DNA of 64,000 nt, taken from contig OZ219871.1 in the NCBI GenBank assembly GCA_964291495.2, positions 1 to 64,000 on the forward strand. Reading direction: 5' to 3'. The translations under genes were made by a program, and so were the position numbers. Within the stretch, counting starts at the first letter, position 1. Every line of letters starts with the position of its first letter. The notes under the pieces were generated by a model, which saw only the letters and a program-made list of their open reading frames with translations, did not search any database and was not told where the DNA came from. The DNA is from Dehalococcoidia bacterium. Its GTDB lineage: Bacteria; Chloroflexota; Dehalococcoidia; UBA2979. Positions 5,576 through 19,049 of the stretch are shown here, piece by piece.

Positions 5576-10126
<4,551 letters not shown>

Positions 10127-10345: not shown

Positions 10346-11593
10346 CTAGCCGAGCTCCGGCGTCGGTCGCTCGTCCCACACCACCTCGCGTTCGACGAGC
10401 GCGTCGATGCCCGCGGCGTCGAGGCCGAGCAGCCCGGCGAGCAGCGCCCTCGAGTCCTGGCCCATGTCCGGCGAGGTGCCCTGGATCGCGCCGGGTGTGC
10501 GGGAGAGCTTGATCGGCGTCTCCACCAGCGGGAGCGTGCCGAGCGTGTGGTGCTCCACGGGCTTGAGCATTCCGCGCGCCCCCACCTGCGGCTGCGCCGC
10601 GGCCTCGGCGATGTTGTTGAGCGGCCCGCAGGGGATCTCGTACGGCGTCAGCCGCTCCACCCACTCGGCCGTGGTGCGCTTGCGGAACGCCTCGTTGAGC
10701 AGCGGTTCCAGCTCCGCGTGGTTCGCCGAGCGCGCGTGCGCCTCGGCGAAGCGCGGGTCGTCGATCAGTTCCACGACATCCAGCTCCGAGCAGAGCAGGG
10801 CCCACTGGTTCGGCACGCCCCAGGCGAGGGCGACGACGATGTAGCCGTCCGCGGTGGGAAACGCCTGGAACGGCACGGCCCAGGAGTGCCGCGTCCCCAG
10901 CGGCTGCGGCAGCTGGCCCGTCAGGTGGTAGCGCAGCAAGGCGTTCTCCTGGATCGCCAGCTGGCAGTCCAGCATCGAGATGTCGACGAGCTGGCCGCGG
11001 CCCGACGTCTCGCGCTCGCGCAGCGCCGCGAGGATGCCGACCGCGCCAAACAGCCCGCCCGCGATGTCGGCGAGCGAGAGGCCAGGCTTGAGCGGTGGCC
11101 CGTCCGGCTCGCCGGTCACGGACATCACGCCGCCCGCGCCCTGGATCACCACGTCGAGGGCCGGCCGATCGCGCATCGGCCCGGTCTGGCCGTAGCCGGA
11201 GATGGCAGCGTAGATCAGGCCGGGATGGACCTCGGCGAGCCGCTCGTAGCCGAGGCCGAGGCGCTCGAGCGTGCCCGGCCGGAAGTTCTCGACCAGCACG
11301 TCGAACTGCGGCACGAGCTGCAGGAACAGCTCGCGCCCCTCCTCCTGCTTGAGGTCGATCGCGATGCTGCGCTTGCCTCGATTGACGCTGAAGAAGTAGC
11401 CGGACTCGCCGTCGAGGAGCGGGCCAGTGGTGCGGGCCACGTCGCCGAAAGGCGGGCGCTCGCACTTCACCACCTCCGCGCCGAGGTCGCAGAGGATCAT
11501 CGTGCAGTACGGGCCGGCGAGCACCCAGCTCAGGTCCAGCACGCGCAGGCCGCTCAGCGGACCGCCGCTCATCGAGGATCCTTCCGCCATCAC
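10346..11593 (-). CDS. CaiB/BaiF family (class III) CoA-transferase
   Basis: PLSGLRVLDLS..LAGP, NRGKRSI, ENFRPG, catalytic Asp in LADIAGG. Confidence 0.92.
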   Translation of the reverse strand: MMAEGSSMSGGPLSGLRVLDLSWVLAGPYCTMILCDLGAEVVKCERPPFGDVARTTGPLLDGESGYFFSVNRGKRSIAIDLKQEEGRELFLQLVPQFDVLVENFRPGTLERLGLGYERLAEVHPGLIYAAISGYGQTGPMRDRPALDVVIQGAGGVMSVTGEPDGPPLKPGLSLADIAGGLFGAVGILAALRERETSGRGQLVDISMLDCQLAIQENALLRYHLTGQLPQPLGTRHSWAVPFQAFPTADGYIVVALAWGVPNQWALLCSELDVVELIDDPRFAEAHARSANHAELEPLLNEAFRKRTTAEWVERLTPYEIPCGPLNNIAEAAAQPQVGARGMLKPVEHHTLGTLPLVETPIKLSRTPGAIQGTSPDMGQDSRALLAGLLGLDAAGIDALVEREVVWDERPTPELG

Positions 11594-12501
11594 GCACTCG
11601 CGTCGTCGCGCCGCACGAGGCTGAGCCCGCCCCGCAGGGCGACGTACACCCCAGCGAGGAGCAGCGCGGCGCCGAGCGCCTCAAGCAGTGTAGGCCGCTC
11701 GCCGAGGAGCGTCGCGCCGATCGCGGTCGCGCCGACGGGCTCGCCGAGCACGGCGACGGCGACGACCGCCGCGGGCAGCGAGCCGAGCGCCCAGGTCAGC
11801 GCGCCGTGCCCCATCAGCTGCGGCACCAGCGCGAGCAGCACGATGAAGATGTAGGCCTCGGCGCCCCAGCCGAGCAGCGACTCGCCGCTGACGGCCAGCG
11901 CGACAAGTAGTGCGACCGCGGCGATCGCGTTGACCAGCGCGGCGTAGCTGACGTTCGAGAGCCTCGCGCGGACGCGCCGCCCGGCGACGAGGTAGATCGA
12001 GGCGAAGACGGCTCCCAGCGCCGCGAACGCGTCGCCGCGCAGCGAGACGCCGTCGCCGAGGTCCGAGCCCGCCAGCAGCAGCGCTCCGGCGGCGGCGATG
12101 GCGATCGCGGTAAAGAGGGCGCGCGTCGGTCGCTCCCGCAGCCACAGCCAGGCGCCGAGGCCGACGATCAGCGGCTGGGTCGCAACGATCGCCGTGCTGG
12201 CCGCGATCGAGGTGTCCTGCAGCGAGGCGACCCAGAAGCCGAAGTGAGCGGCGAGCGCGAGCCCCGCGAGCATCAGCAGGGCCACGTCGCCGCGCTCGAG
12301 CAGCCGCAGCTCCTCGCGGCGGCGCAGCCCCGAGAGCGCGAGCAGCGGGAGGGCGGCGAACGTCATGCGCAGCGAGGCCACCACCAGCGGCGGAGCGTCC
12401 GCCAGCCGGATCAGCGGCGCGGCCCAGGAGAGTGCAGCCACGCCCACGAGCAGCACGATCCACTCGTGCGACGCCACGCGCCCAAGCCACGCCCTGTCCA
12501 T
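11590..12501 (-). CDS. DMT/EamA family transporter (copy 2)
   Basis: About ten hydrophobic helices, LGEPVGA motif; close paralog of 12538-13458. Confidence 0.88.
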   Translation of the reverse strand: MDRAWLGRVASHEWIVLLVGVAALSWAAPLIRLADAPPLVVASLRMTFAALPLLALSGLRRREELRLLERGDVALLMLAGLALAAHFGFWVASLQDTSIAASTAIVATQPLIVGLGAWLWLRERPTRALFTAIAIAAAGALLLAGSDLGDGVSLRGDAFAALGAVFASIYLVAGRRVRARLSNVSYAALVNAIAAVALLVALAVSGESLLGWGAEAYIFIVLLALVPQLMGHGALTWALGSLPAAVVAVAVLGEPVGATAIGATLLGERPTLLEALGAALLLAGVYVALRGGLSLVRRDDASA

Positions 12502-12537: not shown

Positions 12538-13458
12538 TCACGAGGGCGCTCCGCCCCCATCCTCGCGCGTTACGAGGCGCAGCCCGCCGCGCAGCGCGAC
12601 GTAGACACCCACCAACAGCAGAGCGGCGCCGAGGGCCTCGAGCAGCGTCGGCGGCTCATCGAGGAGCGTCGCGCCGATCGCGGTCGCGCCCACCGGCTCG
12701 CCCAGCGCGGCCACCGCGACGACGGCGGCAGGCAGCGAGCCGAGGGCCCAGGTGAACGCCCCGTGCCCGAGGAGCTGCGGCAGCAGCGCGAGCAGCACGA
12801 TCAGGATGTAGGCCTCGGCGCCCCAGCCGAGCAGCGACTCGCCGCTCGCGGCCAGCGCGATCAGCAGCACGATCGCACCGATCGCGTTGGCCAGCGCGAA
12901 GTAGCTGACGTTCGAGAGCCTCGCCCGCACACGCCGCCCGGTCACGAGGTAGATCGAGGCGCAGACGGCGCCCAGCGCCGCGAAGGCGTCGCCGCGCAGC
13001 GAGACACCGTCGCCGAGGTCCGCGCCCGCCAGCACCAGCGCTCCGCCCGCGGCGATGGCGATGCCGATCAGCAGCGGGCGCGTCGGCCGCTCGCCGAGCG
13101 CGACCCAGGCGCCGAGCCCGACGATCAATGGCTGCGTCGCGATGATCGCGGTGGCCGCGGCGATCGAGGTGTCCTGCACCGAGGCGGTCCAGAGCCCGAT
13201 GTACCCGGCGAGCGCCAGCCCCGCGAGCGCCAGCAGCGCCGCGTCGCGTCTGCCGAGGAGGCGCAACTCCTCGCGGCGGCGCAGGGCGGAGACCGCGAGC
13301 AGCGGGAGCGCCGCCAGCACCAGCCGCAGCGAGGCGATGACGAGCGGCGGGGCATCCGTCAGGCGGACCAGTGGCGCGGCCCAGGCGAACCCCACCACTC
13401 CGGCGAGCAGCACGATCCACTCGCGCCCCGCCACGCCCTCGCGCCAGGCCTTGTTCAT
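12538..13458 (-). CDS. DMT/EamA family transporter (copy 1)
   Basis: Same architecture as 11590-12501, long near-identical DNA stretches. Confidence 0.88.
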   Translation of the reverse strand: MNKAWREGVAGREWIVLLAGVVGFAWAAPLVRLTDAPPLVIASLRLVLAALPLLAVSALRRREELRLLGRRDAALLALAGLALAGYIGLWTASVQDTSIAAATAIIATQPLIVGLGAWVALGERPTRPLLIGIAIAAGGALVLAGADLGDGVSLRGDAFAALGAVCASIYLVTGRRVRARLSNVSYFALANAIGAIVLLIALAASGESLLGWGAEAYILIVLLALLPQLLGHGAFTWALGSLPAAVVAVAALGEPVGATAIGATLLDEPPTLLEALGAALLLVGVYVALRGGLRLVTREDGGGAPS

Positions 13459-13508
13459 GCCGCGACGCTAGCAGGTGCTGCCCCTACCGGCCGGGTGACG
13501 GCAGAGCG

Positions 13509-14432
13509 CTAGCTCTCGCCCCCGTGCTCGGCGAGGAGCGCCTCGATCATCCTGCGCAGCTCGCCGCTCCTTGGCTCCGCGAAGAGCATGTCCACGAACT
13601 TATCCGAGTTGGGAGCGATGGCCGCGTAGTTGGGGTGGTAGCGGAAGCCGAGGCTCATCGCGAACTCCTTGTCCTCGCGGATGATCCAGTTGAGGATCAC
13701 GAAGTTCACCCGGTCCTGGAATTCGAGTCGAAGCGCGTTCACGACGTGCCGTACACGGTTGCAGGCCGGTCACCCGGGGTCATCGACGACGACGAAGGTC
13801 GGCATCCCGTTCACCGGCAGCCACGCCCCCGTGGACACGACCCGGTTCGGTGAAAGCTCGTCGCGCGACACTGTGACAGCCGGCCCGGTCGGGAAGTCGT
13901 AGCTCGGCTCGGGCGTCTCGGTCGGCGTCGGTTCGGGCGTTGCTGTCGGTGTCGGCTCAGGCGTCGCGGTGGGCGTTGGCTCTGGCGTTGCCGTCGGCGT
14001 CGGCTCTGGCGTCGCGGTTGGCGCTGGCTCCGGCGTCGCCGTCGGGGTTGGCTCCGGCGTCGCGGTTGGCGTTGGCTCTGGCGTCGCGGTTGGGGTCGGC
14101 TCAGGCGTCGCGGTCGGCGTCGGCTCAGGCGTCGCCGTCGGTGTCGGCTCAGGCGTGGCGGTGGGCGTTGGCTCGGGCGTTGCGGTCGGTCTCGGCTCGG
14201 GCGTTGCGGTCGGTCTCGGCTCGGGCGTTGCGGTGGCGGTCGGCGTCGGCTCGGGCGTAACGACTATGGTCGGCTGCGGCGTGGCCGTTGCTACGACGGC
14301 CGAGGGCGTCGTCGTTGCCTCGGGGGTCGGTTCAGCCTCGTCGTCGCCCGCGCAGGCCGCCGCCAGCGCCACGCAGGCAAGGGCCAGGACCGCGAGGCGC
14401 GGGGCTGGCATGTGACGCCGGAGGCGCGGCAT
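13509..14432 (-). CDS. Thioredoxin-fold lipoprotein, predicted selenoprotein (UPAC; TGA at 13770-13772), long Pro/Thr/Glu stalk
   Basis: ORFs 13770-14453 and 13509-13742 are in one frame: ..[35 protein letters not shown]..; lipobox LAAAC; GAGG RBS before ATG 14432; SECIS-like hairpin. Confidence 0.82.
13732..13750 (-). promoter_or_regulatory. Putative bacterial SECIS hairpin
   Basis: GGCACGU-CGUGA-ACGCGCU, loop at +27..+31 after the UGA, one A-C mismatch. Confidence 0.7.
13905..14256 (-). repeat. 24-bp coding tandem repeat (PEPTPTAT)n
   Basis: More than a dozen imperfect PTATPEPT units in the translation. Confidence 0.93.
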
Positions 14433-14439
14433 CAGCACC

Positions 14440-14883
14440 TCAGACCGGCTCAATCACCTGGATCGTGCTTGCCTCGACGAGCTGCACGCACTCGCAGGGG
14501 GTCATGCCGGGAAGCGCTTCCTGACCGGGCTCCATCCGCTCGAGGCTGTTCGCGATCGAGGCGATCTGCTCGCGCGAGCGTTCCAGCTCCTCGATGCGGC
14601 CGTCGAGCTGCTCGACGGCCTCGGCGAGCGTCCGGCTGAGGACCGTGCGGATATCGCCGCAGGTACCGTCGTGCGCGAGGCCGAGCACCGTGCCCATCTC
14701 GTTGAGCGACAGCCCGAGGCCGCGCAGCCCGACGGCGAGCCGCAGGGTCTCGACATGCTGCTCGGAGTAGTCGCGATACCCGTTCGCACGGCGTGGCGCC
14801 GGGGGCAGAACGCCCTGCCGCTCGTAGAAGCGGATTGTGTCGGCGCTGAGGCCGCTGGCGGTGGCGGCACGCTGGATGTTCAT
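14440..14883 (-). CDS. MerR-family heavy-metal-type transcriptional regulator
   Basis: [23 protein letters not shown]; Cys in GTCGD and C-terminal PCEC. Confidence 0.9.
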
Positions 14884-14952
14884 CCCGTTCGCCCGCTCCC
14901 GTTCTCGTTCGCCGTTTAAGGATACGCCGCCGCGAGGCGCTCGTGGCCCCGG

Positions 14953-15474
14953 CTATCCACCCTGGCCGGCGATCGCCTCGTCGAGGAGCTCGCGCAGCGC
15001 CACCTCGCGCAGCGGACCGAAGGTCGTCTTCAGCACGTCGCTGGCGTCGGCAGTGACGACCGCGAAGGACGGGTGCCGGCCGACGCCCAGCTCCCTCGCC
15101 AGGTCACGCTCCGCCGATTCGTCGAAGTCGAGGACCACGAAGTTGACCCGGTCCTGGTATTCCTCCCGAAGCCCGTGCACGACGGGCCGCGCGATCGCGC
15201 AGGACGGTCACCAGATCGCATCGACGAAGACGAGCGTCGGCTTGCCGTTCGCGGGGACGTAGGCGCCGGTGGAGTCGACGCGGTCGCCCGGAAACTGGTA
15301 GCCGGCTGGCACGAGCACCGCCGGCCCGGTGGGGAAGCCCGCTCCCGCCGCCGTTGCGTCGGACGACGCCGCCGATGACGCGGGAGCGCCCTCGTCGCCA
15401 CCGGAGCAGGCGGCGACTAGCACCGCCCCGGCGAGGAGCGCGAACACGATGCCGAGAGCGCGCTGGATGCTCAT
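14953..15474 (-). CDS. Thioredoxin-fold lipoprotein, predicted selenoprotein (WUPSC; TGA at 15208-15210)
   Basis: ORFs 15208-15474 and 14953-15180 are in one frame: KPTLVFVDAIW-TGA-PSCAIARPVVHGLREEYQDRVNFV..HP; lipobox VAAC. Confidence 0.87.
15170..15188 (-). promoter_or_regulatory. Putative bacterial SECIS hairpin
   Basis: GGCCCGU-CGUGC-ACGGGCU, loop at +27..+31 after the UGA. Confidence 0.8.
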
Positions 15475-15562
15475 GCGGTCCGGACCTTCCTCGCGGGGGT
15501 GGCTGCCTGTCGGGGATCTCCGGGATCAAGGATATGACGCGACGCGGTTGTGCGGCGCGCGG

Positions 15563-16153
15563 CTAGCCCTCGTAGCGCGAGATCAGGGCGTCGAGCATGC
15601 CGCGCAGCTTGGGCTCGCGCTGCACCCCGAAGACCCTCGCGATCACCTCGGCCGAGTCGGGCGCGATCAGCAGGTAGGCGGGCGTCCCCGAGTAGCCGAG
15701 CGCTCGCGCCAGCCTGTCGTCCTCGCGGTCGTCGACATCCAACACCACGAAGTTCACCCGGTCCTGGTATTCCGTTCGGAGCCCATGCACGATGGGCCGC
15801 GCGATCTCGCAGAACTGTCACCAGATCGCATCGACGAACACCAGGGTCGGCTTGCCGTTCGAGGGCAGGTAGGCGCCCGTTGAGGCGACGCGATCCTCGG
15901 GCGGCGCGTAGCCGGCGGCCACGAGCACCGCGGGGCCGGTCGGGAAGGCATAGCTCTCCGGAGTCGGCGTTGGCGATGGCGTCGGGGTCGGCGTCGCCTC
16001 GGGAGTCGCGACGACGGTCGGCGCGGGCGTCGCGGCGGGCGCCGGCGCGTCCTCGCCGCCCCCGCCCGTGCAGGCGGCGCCGAGCGCCGCGCAGGCGAGA
16101 ACCAGCAGTGCGAGGATCGGGATACGGAAGCGGCGTGCGCGGGATTGCAGCAT
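15563..16153 (-). CDS. Thioredoxin-fold lipoprotein, predicted selenoprotein (WUQFC; TGA at 15818-15820)
   Basis: ORFs 15818-16399 and 15563-15790 are in one frame: KPTLVFVDAIW-TGA-QFCEIARPIVHGLRTEYQDRVNFV..GTP; lipobox LGAAC; TATGAT 7 nt before ATG 16153. Confidence 0.87.
15780..15798 (-). promoter_or_regulatory. Putative bacterial SECIS hairpin
   Basis: GGCCCAU-CGUGC-AUGGGCU, loop at +27..+31; A-U pair replaces the G-C pair of the other copies. Confidence 0.8.
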
Positions 16154-16190
16154 CGCTTCGATCATACGCCCGCGGGCCTGCCGCGACACG

Positions 16191-16817
16191 CTACTCGTAG
16201 GCGCCGCCGGCCGTGTCCGCATCGGCCACGCCGACCTCGAGCAAGTGGCCGACGACGGTTCCGAGGGCGGTCGTGCGCAGGATCCCGTCACGGTCGATGA
16301 AGAACGTCGCGGGCAGCGCGCGCACCCCGTAGCGTCGCGCGACCTCGCCACCGGACGTATCGAACATGATCGGGAACGTGAGCCCGAACTCCTCGACAAA
16401 GGCTTCGGCCGCGGCGCGCGTGTCCGTCGGCAACAGGTTCACGGCGAGGATCACGAGGTCGTCGGGACCGTCCGGCCCGCGCTCCTCCCACAGTTCCTGG
16501 AAGTCCGGCATCTCCCGGTGGCAGGGCACGCACCAGCTGGCCCAGAAGTTCAGCACGACGGTCTTGCCTCGATAGTCGGAGAGCCGCACCGCGCCGCCCC
16601 CGAGCGCGTTCAGCAGGAAGTCCGGCGCGGGCCGGTCGACGTCCACGAGAGCGTCGTCCAACAGCCCGATCGTGGCCCGCCGCGGCGTCGGTGTTTGCGT
16701 GGGTGTCGCCGTCGCGACGGCGGTCGCGGTCGCCGGCGGCTCGGCGCCGCCGTCCCCGCAGGCGGCCGCGATCAGCAGCAGGCAGGCAAGCGCCGAGAGG
16801 GCGAGGCGCCGCAGCAT
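16191..16817 (-). CDS. TlpA/ResA-family disulfide reductase lipoprotein
   Basis: [41 protein letters not shown]; lipobox IAAAC. Confidence 0.92.
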   Translation of the reverse strand: MLRRLALSALACLLLIAAACGDGGAEPPATATAVATATPTQTPTPRRATIGLLDDALVDVDRPAPDFLLNALGGGAVRLSDYRGKTVVLNFWASWCVPCHREMPDFQELWEERGPDGPDDLVILAVNLLPTDTRAAAEAFVEEFGLTFPIMFDTSGGEVARRYGVRALPATFFIDRDGILRTTALGTVVGHLLEVGVADADTAGGAYE

Positions 16818-16841: not shown

Positions 16842-17438
16842 CTAGCCGCCACCGCCGGCGTCCGCCTTCTCCACGCCGGCGGGGAGCAGGTTGCCGAAGA
16901 CGGGGCCGTAGTTGACCCCGCGCACCACGCCGTCACGGTCGATGAAGAACGTCGCCGGCAGCCCCCGCACGCGGTAGCGCTCCGCCACCGCGCCGTCCGC
17001 AGTGTCGAACAGCACCGGGAACGTGAACCCGTTGCCCTCGATGAACTTGCGGGCATCGGTCATCGTGTCCTGCACGAGGAAGTCGAGCGCGAGCATCACG
17101 AGGTCGTCCGCGCCGTCCGCGCCGCGCTCATCCCACAGCTCCTGGAACTCGGGCATCTCCTCGCGGCAGGGCGGACACCAGCTCGCCCAGAAGTTGAGCA
17201 CCACTGTCTTGCCGCGGAAGTCGGAGAGCATGACCGTCTCGCCATCGAGGTCCGTCAGCGCGAAGTCGGGCGCGGGCTGATCGATGGCCACCGACAGGTC
17301 GTCGAGCAGGCCGATCTCGACCATCACGCCCTCGCTCGTCATGCCCTCGTCGACGTGCGGGTCGATGAACTCGCGCTGCACGAAGAGCGCGGCGATCACC
17401 GCCACGATCAGGAAGGCCAGCCTTCTGTTCTCCTGCAT
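16842..17438 (-). CDS. TlpA/ResA-family disulfide reductase, membrane-anchored
   Basis: [27 protein letters not shown]-terminal hydrophobic anchor. Confidence 0.92.
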
Positions 17439-17486: not shown

Positions 17487-18824
17487 TCAGGAGCGATCCA
17501 CGTCACTCTCGAGGATGACACGCGTCTCCGGCTTGAACACCGCCCAGGCGAACCAGAAATGGTTGCCGGAGACGAGCGGCGTCAGTTGCTGCCCCGCCAG
17601 CGGCCCCGACACCGCGCGGCCGAGCACGTCCCACGTGCTGCCCGTGCCAGCGTCGACGATCGCGCCGTCGCGCGCCTCGAAGCGCAGCCGCTCGCCGTCG
17701 AGGAACGGGCTGAACGCGCCGGCGGAGCCGACGTTGCGGCTGCCGATGATGAACGCCTCGTCGAGGGCGGAGACCTGCCCCGGCTGCCAGAAGGCGACGA
17801 CCTGCTCGCCGCCGACCTCGGCCTCGATGACCACGAGTTCGCTCAGCGCGCTGAACGGGAACGCTGCCGTCTCGCCTCCGAGTTCGAGCGTCAGCACGCG
17901 CTCTTTGGCGGAGAGCTGGTTGTTGAACTCACCGACGGGGAAGAGCGTCCTGCCGCTGGAGTCGTAGAGGACGTAGGGATTCTCGCCGTAGTTCCGCGCG
18001 TGGCCGGTCTCGCGGCTGAGCACGACGCCGTCCTCGAAGGCCGCGCGGAACTCCCCGAAGGAGACGAGCTGGGCGGGCAGGAACTCCAGCACCACGCCCG
18101 TGTCGCGTCCGACGATCGCCTCGCCCGTGAGCTGTTGCCACAGCGTCTCGGTCTGGCGGTCGTACATGATGAGATCGCTGTTGCGCAGGCTGCCGGAGAC
18201 GCCGAACGTGCGCTCCTCGCCGTTCACGACGCGCGAGAAGGCGATCGCCGAGTTGCAGAGGGGGCAGTAGGTCACGATCACCGGCTCGCCGCCGACCACG
18301 TCGTTGACGATCTCGTGCCAGGTCAGGATCTCCAACGGGTAGGCGCGCGCGTCCCCGTTGCGCTCGAAGGCGATCACCGGCGCCTCCGCCGAGAGCCACT
18401 CCGAGGCCTCCTCGATCGTCAGGAAGCGCGGCTCGTCGATCGCCGGGATCGCGTCGGGCGGGATCACCGACCTGATCTCGGCGAGGTTCACCGAGCGCTT
18501 GCTGAGATCGATCCTCGGGAAGTTGCCCTCGAGGATCCGCGCCAACTGCCGTTCGACAGCGTCGGCCGCATCGCGCAGCGGCGTGGGCGTAGGCGTCGGT
18601 GCGGGCGGCGTCGCGGTGGCGGCCGGCGCCGTCGCGGTTACCGTCGCCTCGGGGGTCATCGTGGGCGACGCCTGCGCGGTCGCGGCGGAGGTGGCGGCGG
18701 CCTCAGGCGCGGGGTCGGGCTGAGCGTCGCTGCCGCAGGCCGCGAGGAGCGCCGCAGCGGCGAGGACGAGGCCCGGCCATGCCTGCAGCCGCACCCCCCT
18801 CCGCGCACGTCCGGCGTCAGCCAT
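17487..18824 (-). CDS. DUF3179 domain lipoprotein (Cys form, CPLC)
   Basis: PPDAIPAIDEP, AYPLEILTWHEIVND, VTYCPLCNS, YDRQTETLWQQ, FWFAW; lipobox LAAC. Confidence 0.88.
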   Translation of the reverse strand: MADAGRARRGVRLQAWPGLVLAAAALLAACGSDAQPDPAPEAAATSAATAQASPTMTPEATVTATAPAATATPPAPTPTPTPLRDAADAVERQLARILEGNFPRIDLSKRSVNLAEIRSVIPPDAIPAIDEPRFLTIEEASEWLSAEAPVIAFERNGDARAYPLEILTWHEIVNDVVGGEPVIVTYCPLCNSAIAFSRVVNGEERTFGVSGSLRNSDLIMYDRQTETLWQQLTGEAIVGRDTGVVLEFLPAQLVSFGEFRAAFEDGVVLSRETGHARNYGENPYVLYDSSGRTLFPVGEFNNQLSAKERVLTLELGGETAAFPFSALSELVVIEAEVGGEQVVAFWQPGQVSALDEAFIIGSRNVGSAGAFSPFLDGERLRFEARDGAIVDAGTGSTWDVLGRAVSGPLAGQQLTPLVSGNHFWFAWAVFKPETRVILESDVDRS

Positions 18825-19049
18825 GCTGCCTCCTCGCGTCCGCCCTCGGCCACTTCCGAGGCGGGAACGCACTGCGTTCGTGCGATGCGGAAACCTCCAT
18901 GATCCGCCCTCCCGGGCCTCCATTCCATGATACGTCGCGACCCCTCTACGGACCGCGCCGGCGGGCTTCACGAGGCCGGGACTGGTGGCCTCGATCCGGC
19001 GAGACTACGATGGCGCCGATCGCGGACAAGCGGCGCGGGGAGGCGGCGG

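Follow-up and report, generated by a model that had tools for sequence, protein, structure and literature searches.

We analysed a stretch of 64,000 nucleotides (nt) from a Dehalococcoidia bacterium (contig OZ219871.1, positions 1 to 64,000; hereafter the window), and in it three neighbouring paralogous genes, g1, g2 and g3, each of which is interrupted by one in-frame TGA. Taken together, they appear to be intact genes for thioredoxin-fold lipoproteins containing selenocysteine (Sec), a reading to which we give a probability of about 0.85. The Sec machinery of the genome, homologues with Cys in place of Sec, a hairpin resembling a selenocysteine insertion sequence (SECIS), selection on the sequence downstream of the TGA and public protein predictions that end at the TGA all agree with this reading, which was first put forward in a first-pass annotation of this DNA. 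g2 and g3 are very probably selenoproteins; g1 is the weakest case and is likely to be a working one. The proteins are probably lipid-anchored thiol-disulfide oxidoreductases acting outside the cytoplasm.

Gene structure, fold and homologues

All positions are given in the numbering of the whole stretch, and all three genes lie on the minus strand. Calling of open reading frames under table 11 yields six fragments (13770..14453 and 13509..13742; 15208..15474 and 14953..15180; 15818..16399 and 15563..15790). Reading through the TGA joins these into three frames with one in-frame TGA each, exactly at the positions and with the motifs given by the first-pass annotation. The features of the genes are as follows.

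13509..14432, minus strand: g1, predicted selenoprotein gene; 307 amino acids, U221 in the context DDPG-U-PAC; family profile 186.2 bits with one TGA; lipobox, long Pro/Thr stalk and divergent thioredoxin-like domain
13770..13772, minus strand: in-frame TGA of g1, predicted Sec codon
13904..14249, minus strand: 24-nt tandem repeat of 14.4 copies, encoding the TPEPTPTA stalk of g1
14953..15474, minus strand: g2, predicted selenoprotein gene; 173 amino acids, U89 in the context AIW-U-PSC; family profile 241.9 bits with one TGA; lipobox, short Ser/Ala linker and thioredoxin domain
15208..15210, minus strand: in-frame TGA of g2, predicted Sec codon
15563..16165 (alternative ATG at 16153), minus strand: g3, predicted selenoprotein gene; 200 amino acids, U116 in the context AIW-U-QFC; family profile 247.8 bits with one TGA; lipobox, Pro/Thr linker and thioredoxin domain
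15818..15820, minus strand: in-frame TGA of g3, predicted Sec codon

The stop codon of all three genes is TAG, and a profile search finds no copies of the family in the own genome other than these three. The hydrophobic signal sequences end, as read by eye, in LAAAC (g1), LVAAC (g2) and LGAAC (g3), and in an alignment of the family with its full-length homologues the Cys of this motif is at least 90% conserved, so that the lipobox described earlier is found in each protein. The Pro/Thr stalk described along with it is present in g1, where it is encoded by the tandem repeat, and in a short form in g3; g2 has a short Ser/Ala-rich linker instead. A domain of about 125 residues follows the linker in each protein. 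The homology reported on both sides of the TGA is also found: g1, g2 and g3 can be aligned there among themselves and to 20 full-length homologues.

Concerning the fold, g2 passes the cut-off of the Pfam family Thioredoxin (PF00085, 32.5 bits against 23.5) and scores 25.8 bits with Thioredoxin_2 (PF13098), under the cut-off of 27, while g3 passes the latter (29.8 bits) and scores 26.4 bits with PF00085. The thioredoxin fold that had been ascribed to each protein is thus supported by Pfam in g2 and g3; g1, to which we return below, does match the family profile and shares 38% identity with g2. The profile also finds solved thioredoxins, with E-values down to 3.3e-9. In the alignments with 1m7t_A and 4ulx_A the TGA column corresponds to the first Cys of WCGPC, and a conserved His-Pro of the family (hP) falls on iP of the thioredoxin cis-Pro loop. 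The solved thioredoxins and the Cys homologues therefore both place the TGA where the first Cys of CxxC belongs, as had been proposed.

The homologue counts are based on a database search with g2, of which the best 120 of 135 matches were used. Among the matches listed, Cys occupies the Sec column, as W-C-P-x-C, in each of the 20 full-length homologues, and all 100 short ones (95-155 amino acids) end at ...AIW, the residue before that column. Sec forms therefore stand at 100 and Cys forms at 20 among these matches, and the suspicion of a mis-annotated family is borne out, since the short public predictions stop at the TGA. The few short homologues which have a name are called 'hypothetical protein', and one of the Cys homologues (P0008) is named 'TlpA family protein disulfide reductase' by NCBI.

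The distribution of the family is narrow. In a sample of 301 genomes from this class, the window's own genome included, it is found in nine, all of one taxonomic family (the own genome and eight of the 16 others of that family), and there is no match in the sampled genomes of other taxonomic families; all 16 matches in the nine genomes contain a TGA. A scan of species-representative genomes returned 28 loci, all from Dehalococcoidia or Chloroflexi metagenome-assembled genomes (MAGs), of which 26 have Sec forms and two have Cys forms. Fourteen of these loci contain one copy of the family, six contain two, seven contain three and one contains four. One homologue of the g1 type (L055:7193-7267, plus strand, identical to L032:735-809, minus strand) reads U-P-H-U, with TGA at both active-site positions; the same hairpin is found downstream, the frame stays open and conserved, and the nearest relatives have UPQC and UPHC. 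The two records probably come from one genome, and a recent mutation or an assembly error may explain the second TGA.

Sec machinery, hairpin and selection

The components that the first-pass annotation proposed to look for, selA, selB, selD and tRNA-Sec, are all present in the genome, and all four score above their curated cut-offs. The tRNA-Sec scores 77 bits (cut-off 47) and is called tRNA-SeC with anticodon TCA by ARAGORN. SelA (424.9 bits) and SelB (301.7 bits, cut-off 242.25) lie in frames without an internal TGA, and SelD (368.3 bits) is of the Sec type and carries one TGA itself. Other selenoprotein genes of the genome, each with an in-frame TGA, are three of the UGSC family (167.8, 121.3 and 98.1 bits, with a cut-off of 125), one for an AhpC/TSA protein with WUGVC (75.9 bits) and one for a formate dehydrogenase alpha subunit with U, whose partial frame scores 653.7 bits against a cut-off of 666.25. 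A genome-wide scan for in-frame TGA codons was too strict, as it missed g1, g2, g3 and SelD, and its 29 candidates are not to be read as an estimate of the selenoproteome. Apart from such genes, TGA serves as a regular stop codon in this genome: it ends 406 of 1013 long coding-like frames as well as the MerR gene of the cluster described below.

We used a gapless alignment of 51 distinct 75-nt stretches 3' of the UGA (A3) for the analysis of the hairpin. The stem is formed by columns 22-29 and columns 35-44, contains a 2-nt bulge and encloses a 5-nt loop, and the hairpin of 7-8 base pairs begins 21 nt past the UGA. The loop, 26 nt past the UGA, is CGUGC in 28 sequences, CGUGA in 22 and GGUUC in one. 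The hairpins of the three genes are listed here.

13729..13751, minus strand: SECIS-like hairpin of g1, columns 22-44 after the UGA; A.C mismatch at pair 26-38
15167..15189, minus strand: SECIS-like hairpin of g2; loop CGUGC, -11.2 kcal/mol
15777..15799, minus strand: SECIS-like hairpin of g3; loop CGUGC, -9.8 kcal/mol; an A-U pair replaces a G-C pair of g2

Standard pairs are found in 97.8% of the 408 cells of the alignment. Both sides are changed in 21 cells, at three of the eight pairs (C-G to U-A twice, G-C to A-U once). The share of paired cells, the number of these changed cells and the covariation score are not reached in any of 500 shuffles, and controls with slid partners are paired to at most 43.1%; a set of 16 sequences (A2) gives the same picture. 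Several of the compensatory changes consist of an amino-acid change on one arm and a synonymous change on the other: between g2 and g3, for example, Val to Ile is accompanied by CAC to CAT.

The published model of the bacterial SECIS (bSECIS) has an apical loop of 3-9 nt, an upper stem of 4-16 base pairs and a G in the first two loop positions (PMC13188914), as well as 16-37 nt from the UGA to the loop and a minimum free energy of -7.5 kcal/mol or lower (PMC13188914, legend of Fig. 2). The hairpin of the family fits this model, with a loop of 5 nt, G then U at loop positions 2-3, a stem of 6-8 base pairs and a spacing of 26 nt, so that the check for a bacterial SECIS suggested earlier comes out in favour, with g1 borderline. 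The energy limit is reached by 47 of the 51 sequences on the 23-nt core and by all 51 on positions +10..+60. For g1 the energy is -5.1 kcal/mol on the 23 nt and -7.7 kcal/mol on +10..+60, and the limit is reached only there; L066, the closest g1 orthologue, is mismatched at this pair too. The two Cys-form genes retain one and two of the six core pairs, and the SelD, UGSC and FdhA genes of the own genome have hairpins with GU-containing loops 20-35 nt past the UGA. Folding of single sequences is unremarkable (z-scores 0.00, -1.83 and +0.59), and only the comparative analysis is informative. A lower stem between the UGA region and CCAGGACCGG, which appeared in the single-sequence folds of g1 and g2, was rejected; RNAalifold kept only three invariant pairs.

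Relaxed selection 3' of the TGA had been named as a point that would speak against the genes. The sequence there is under purifying selection: for 14 pairs of the own genes with orthologues more than 70% identical to them, the ratio of nonsynonymous to synonymous substitution rates (dN/dS, Nei-Gojobori) is 0.105-0.535, and g1 has 0.278 and 0.479 with its two orthologues. The end of the genes is also shared, 43 of 54 genes terminating 84-86 codons past the TGA.

A tree built from 54 Sec rows and 20 Cys rows places g1, g2 and g3 in separate clades with strong support; these have 20, 5 and 9 rows, exclusively Sec forms, from several MAGs; the g1 clade of 20 Sec rows has a support of 100/100. Since all three paralogue clades carry the TGA, the duplications are old and the TGA was inherited. 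The earlier argument that three independent nonsense mutations at the same codon are implausible is therefore not the right one, and what counts is the retention of the TGA after duplication. The Cys rows form two supported clades of 18 and two rows. The best tree has two changes between Sec and Cys, and an alternative that joins the 20 Cys rows in one clade is not rejected (p-AU 0.287). The tree is unrooted, so the direction of these changes cannot be told from it and no reversion is claimed.

Public sequencing runs match the region as well. In a run labelled as metatranscriptomic (X8), a 133-nt contig covers 15101-15233 with no differences; it extends 23 letters past the TGA, less than the 31 letters required for bridging, and the library may hold DNA. 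In runs labelled as sponge metagenomes (X4 and X6), contigs match 13400-16300 with 85-99% likeness, and a 155-nt piece (15580-15734) shows no differences; relatives of the organism thus occur in sponge-labelled samples.

Gene neighbourhood

The three genes belong to a compact run of minus-strand genes, in the order DUF3179, two TlpA/ResA-like genes, g3, g2, MerR, g1, two EamA genes and CoA-transferase. The neighbours characterised are listed below.

17487..18971, minus strand: DUF3179 protein with lipobox and CPLC motif (PF11376, 349.2 bits)
16842..17438, minus strand: TlpA/ResA-like oxidoreductase with WCPPC (Cys form) and a hydrophobic N-terminal stretch (AhpC-TSA, 107.8 bits)
16191..16817, minus strand: TlpA/ResA-like oxidoreductase with lipobox and WCVPC (Cys form) (AhpC-TSA, 101.1 bits; ResA subfamily, 111.8 bits, under the cut-off of 170)
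14440..14883, minus strand: MerR-family regulator between g2 and g1, ending in a TGA stop (MerR_1, 59.8 bits)
12538..13458, minus strand: EamA/DMT transporter directly downstream of g1 (PF00892, 109.3 bits)
11590..12501, minus strand: second EamA/DMT transporter (PF00892, 106.7 bits)

DUF3179 is a family with UxxC/T selenoprotein members (PMC13188914, Table 1), and the cluster therefore joins two families with Sec forms. The best NCBIfam matches of the MerR gene are CueR (83.8 bits, cut-off 147.4) and NmlR, both under their cut-offs; the regulator has Cys residues in GTCGD and in a C-terminal CEC. The two EamA proteins of the window hold one Cys and no Cys, respectively, and are for this reason not redox conduits themselves.

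Parts of this neighbourhood recur across the 28 related loci. An EamA gene lies at most 700 nt past a family member in 16 loci, a TlpA-like gene lies at most 1200 nt ahead of one in 15, DUF3179 is found in 15 and MerR in eight. In four loci (L044, L057, L061 and L063) the pair of a g1-type Sec-thioredoxin followed by EamA occurs twice in tandem, as if it had been duplicated as a unit. The distant loci (with gamma-glutamyltranspeptidase, M20 peptidase, PNPOx, PhoX and others) contain no partner in common with the window. In some of these (L042:3251-5098 and 6419-7309; L051:7825-9150) a family member lies near gamma-glutamyltranspeptidase and M20 peptidases, which may hint at extracellular thiol or peptide metabolism or may be chance.

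Elsewhere in the own genome, the lipoprotein-processing enzymes Lgt (158.8 bits) and LspA (127.4 bits) are present. The sole match of the DsbD_TM/CcdA type (G000:C6:236785-237476; L067, L068) consists of two adjacent pieces with frames of 148 and 525 amino acids, and the gene may be split, fused or frameshifted.

Alternatives, mechanism and known systems

Several observations weigh against the reading of all three genes as selenoprotein genes. No Pfam thioredoxin family matches g1 at E <= 0.01, and the residues preceding Sec in g1 are DDPG instead of DAIW, so that its active-site context has diverged. The hairpin of g1 is weakened by its A.C mismatch and is borderline for the bSECIS model. In the family as a whole, the covariation comes from three varying pairs only and the kinship of the sequences inflates the cell counts; when doubly changed pairs are counted instead of cells, 102 of 500 shuffles reach the value of A3, and 18 of 500 that of A2. 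Part of the conservation of the hairpin is due to the protein, because it lies inside conserved codons (RPVVHGLR). Constraint is looser downstream of the UGA than upstream: over all comparable pairs the median dN/dS is 0.55 downstream (285 pairs, maximum 1.31) and 0.28 upstream (287 pairs), on a Nei-Gojobori estimate which is crude and skewed by a GC content of about 93% at third positions. Lastly, the redox direction, the clients and the electron donors proposed below are derived from family resemblance and gene neighbourhood only.

A first alternative is that the genes are pseudogenes, or genes for N-terminal fragments only, with the UGA as a true stop and nothing but remnants of reading frames behind it. 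The short public predictions, all of which end before the TGA among the matches listed, the weak hairpin of g1 and a GC content of 70%, at which long open frames arise easily, can be read in this way. We consider this very improbable: 51 distinct sequences from three old paralogue clades share the codon position of the TGA, the downstream part aligns with Cys-form proteins over its whole length, it evolves under the low dN/dS of the own genes and reaches a common end, the hairpin has compensatory changes, and a product ending at the TGA would be left without the greater part of its thioredoxin fold. A full-length protein could also be made without Sec if the UGA were read outside the Sec pathway, for example by a near-cognate tRNA for Cys or Trp. 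Insertion of Cys at UGA Sec codons is possible under selenium scarcity. This has only a small chance of being right, a little greater than that of the pseudogenes, as the genome has the complete Sec machinery, the bSECIS-like hairpin lies at the right distance and is missing from the Cys-form genes, and similar GU-loop hairpins are found past the UGA of bona fide selenoprotein genes of the own genome. That TGA is a sense codon throughout the genome (code 4 or 25) and the genes are ordinary ones has nothing in its favour beyond the in-frame TGAs themselves. It is already contradicted by the stop usage described above, by homologues that have Cys, and neither Trp nor Gly, at the column and by the open frames of SelA, SelB and most other matches, and may practically be discarded.

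The main functional rival accepts that the genes encode genuine selenoproteins and holds that the selenol/thiol pair serves to bind or hand on a selenium species or a soft metal such as Cu or Hg, under control of a metal-type MerR regulator. The regulator between the paralogues, with its best match to CueR, and the DMT transporter that follows the g1-type gene in 16 of the 28 loci speak for this, and many predicted selenoproteins are related to metals (PMC13188914, section 7). We regard it as unlikely, yet well ahead of the alternatives above: the family can be aligned with redox thioredoxins in its fold, its WCxxC-type motif and its cis-Pro position, TlpA/ResA-like reductases are its closest neighbours, 20 of the 28 loci have no MerR gene, and Pfam scans of the cluster proteins show no metal-binding domain. 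For the thiol-disulfide oxidoreductases favoured here, a role as reductase or isomerase has a slight edge, because of the TlpA/ResA-like neighbours and the thioredoxin-type motif.

In the mechanism that we propose, SelB with Sec-tRNA(Sec) would bind the hairpin as the ribosome meets the UGA, and Sec would be inserted. The precursor would then be exported, lipidated by Lgt at the lipobox Cys and cleaved by LspA, and the flexible linker would hold the protein on the outer face of the cytoplasmic membrane. There the W-U-x-x-C site may act as a thiol-disulfide oxidoreductase: the selenolate would attack a disulfide or an oxidised cysteine of an exported client, and the second Cys would resolve the selenenylsulfide. 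The TlpA-like neighbours, working through a CcdA-type membrane protein, might re-reduce the oxidised site; alternatively, a small thiol that is exported might do so. A more far-reaching version appears doubtful, even more so than the metal role. According to it, the cluster would be a self-contained extracytoplasmic selenol redox relay of one Dehalococcoidia family, composed of Sec-thioredoxin lipoproteins, TlpA-like proteins and DUF3179; the g1-type proteins would be coupled to EamA, whose export of a small-thiol reductant would take the place of CcdA, and Sec would be ancestral and dominant, with Cys arising by reversion.

As regards the significance of these genes, the family is systematically mis-annotated, and a family model would repair the annotation of many MAGs. 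It adds an exported, lipid-anchored thioredoxin-like selenoprotein, predicted in up to four copies per locus, and its conserved neighbourhood is worth noting. As a general rule, Cys homologues are far more abundant than Sec forms (PMC13188914, section 8); the ratio of Sec to Cys forms in this family (100:20 among the matches listed) is the opposite, and depends on where the boundaries of the family are drawn. What is known of Sec decoding and of the kinds of bacterial selenoproteins is unchanged by the finding. The database BSepDB contains 57,630 bacterial selenoproteins in 111 families, and two Dehalococcoidia MAGs, with 49 and 46, are among the richest in selenoproteins according to PMC13326102. 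Literature searches on selenoproteins of Dehalococcoidia, of Chloroflexota and of sponge symbionts and on thioredoxin-like selenolipoproteins listed no description of the g1-g3 family, and BSepDB may already file it.

Among known systems, the closest in fold is the thioredoxin selenoprotein (PF00085), whose UxxC form is listed as experimentally verified in Table 1 of a 2026 review of prokaryotic selenoproteomes (PMC13188914). It shares with g1, g2 and g3 the fold and the Sec in place of the first Cys of CxxC that are predicted for these, and both g2 and g3 pass the PF00085 cut-off. Unlike it, the three proteins have a signal peptide, a lipobox and a linker, and are probably extracytoplasmic; they also have a conserved N-terminal extension of about 40 residues (FPTGPAV...STGAYLP.NGKPT) and the motif W-U-P/Q-x-C rather than WCGPC, and score 31.7-34.4 bits with the thioredoxin equivalog, against a cut-off of 96.8. 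No NCBIfam model reaches its cut-off for any of the three. The predicted exported UxxC thioredoxin-like oxidoreductases (PF13098) are similar in kind; at the level of the Pfam profile, g3 passes their cut-off, g2 stays under it and g1 has no match.

TlpA, ResA and DsbE (CcmG) are likewise membrane-anchored extracytoplasmic thioredoxin-fold proteins, and two such genes lie directly upstream of g3. The WCPxC of the Cys forms of the family resembles the CcmG motif. In contrast to the TlpA-like neighbours (92-108 bits), g1, g2 and g3 have no match to AhpC-TSA (PF00578) or Redoxin (PF08534); the DsbE model matches g3 only, with 21 bits against a cut-off of 123.15. Their domain is also shorter and lacks the insertion of TlpA-type proteins, as judged from the alignment only. 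The Rcas_1661 family thioredoxin-like (seleno)lipoprotein (NF041057), DsbG-like in Table 1 of PMC13188914, is by its name of the same kind and has Sec and Cys forms. It does not match g1, g2 or g3 at E <= 0.01, and these therefore belong to a different family. Thioredoxin-fold UxxC selenoproteins, lipoproteins included, are an established class, and g1, g2 and g3 are a distinct subfamily within it.

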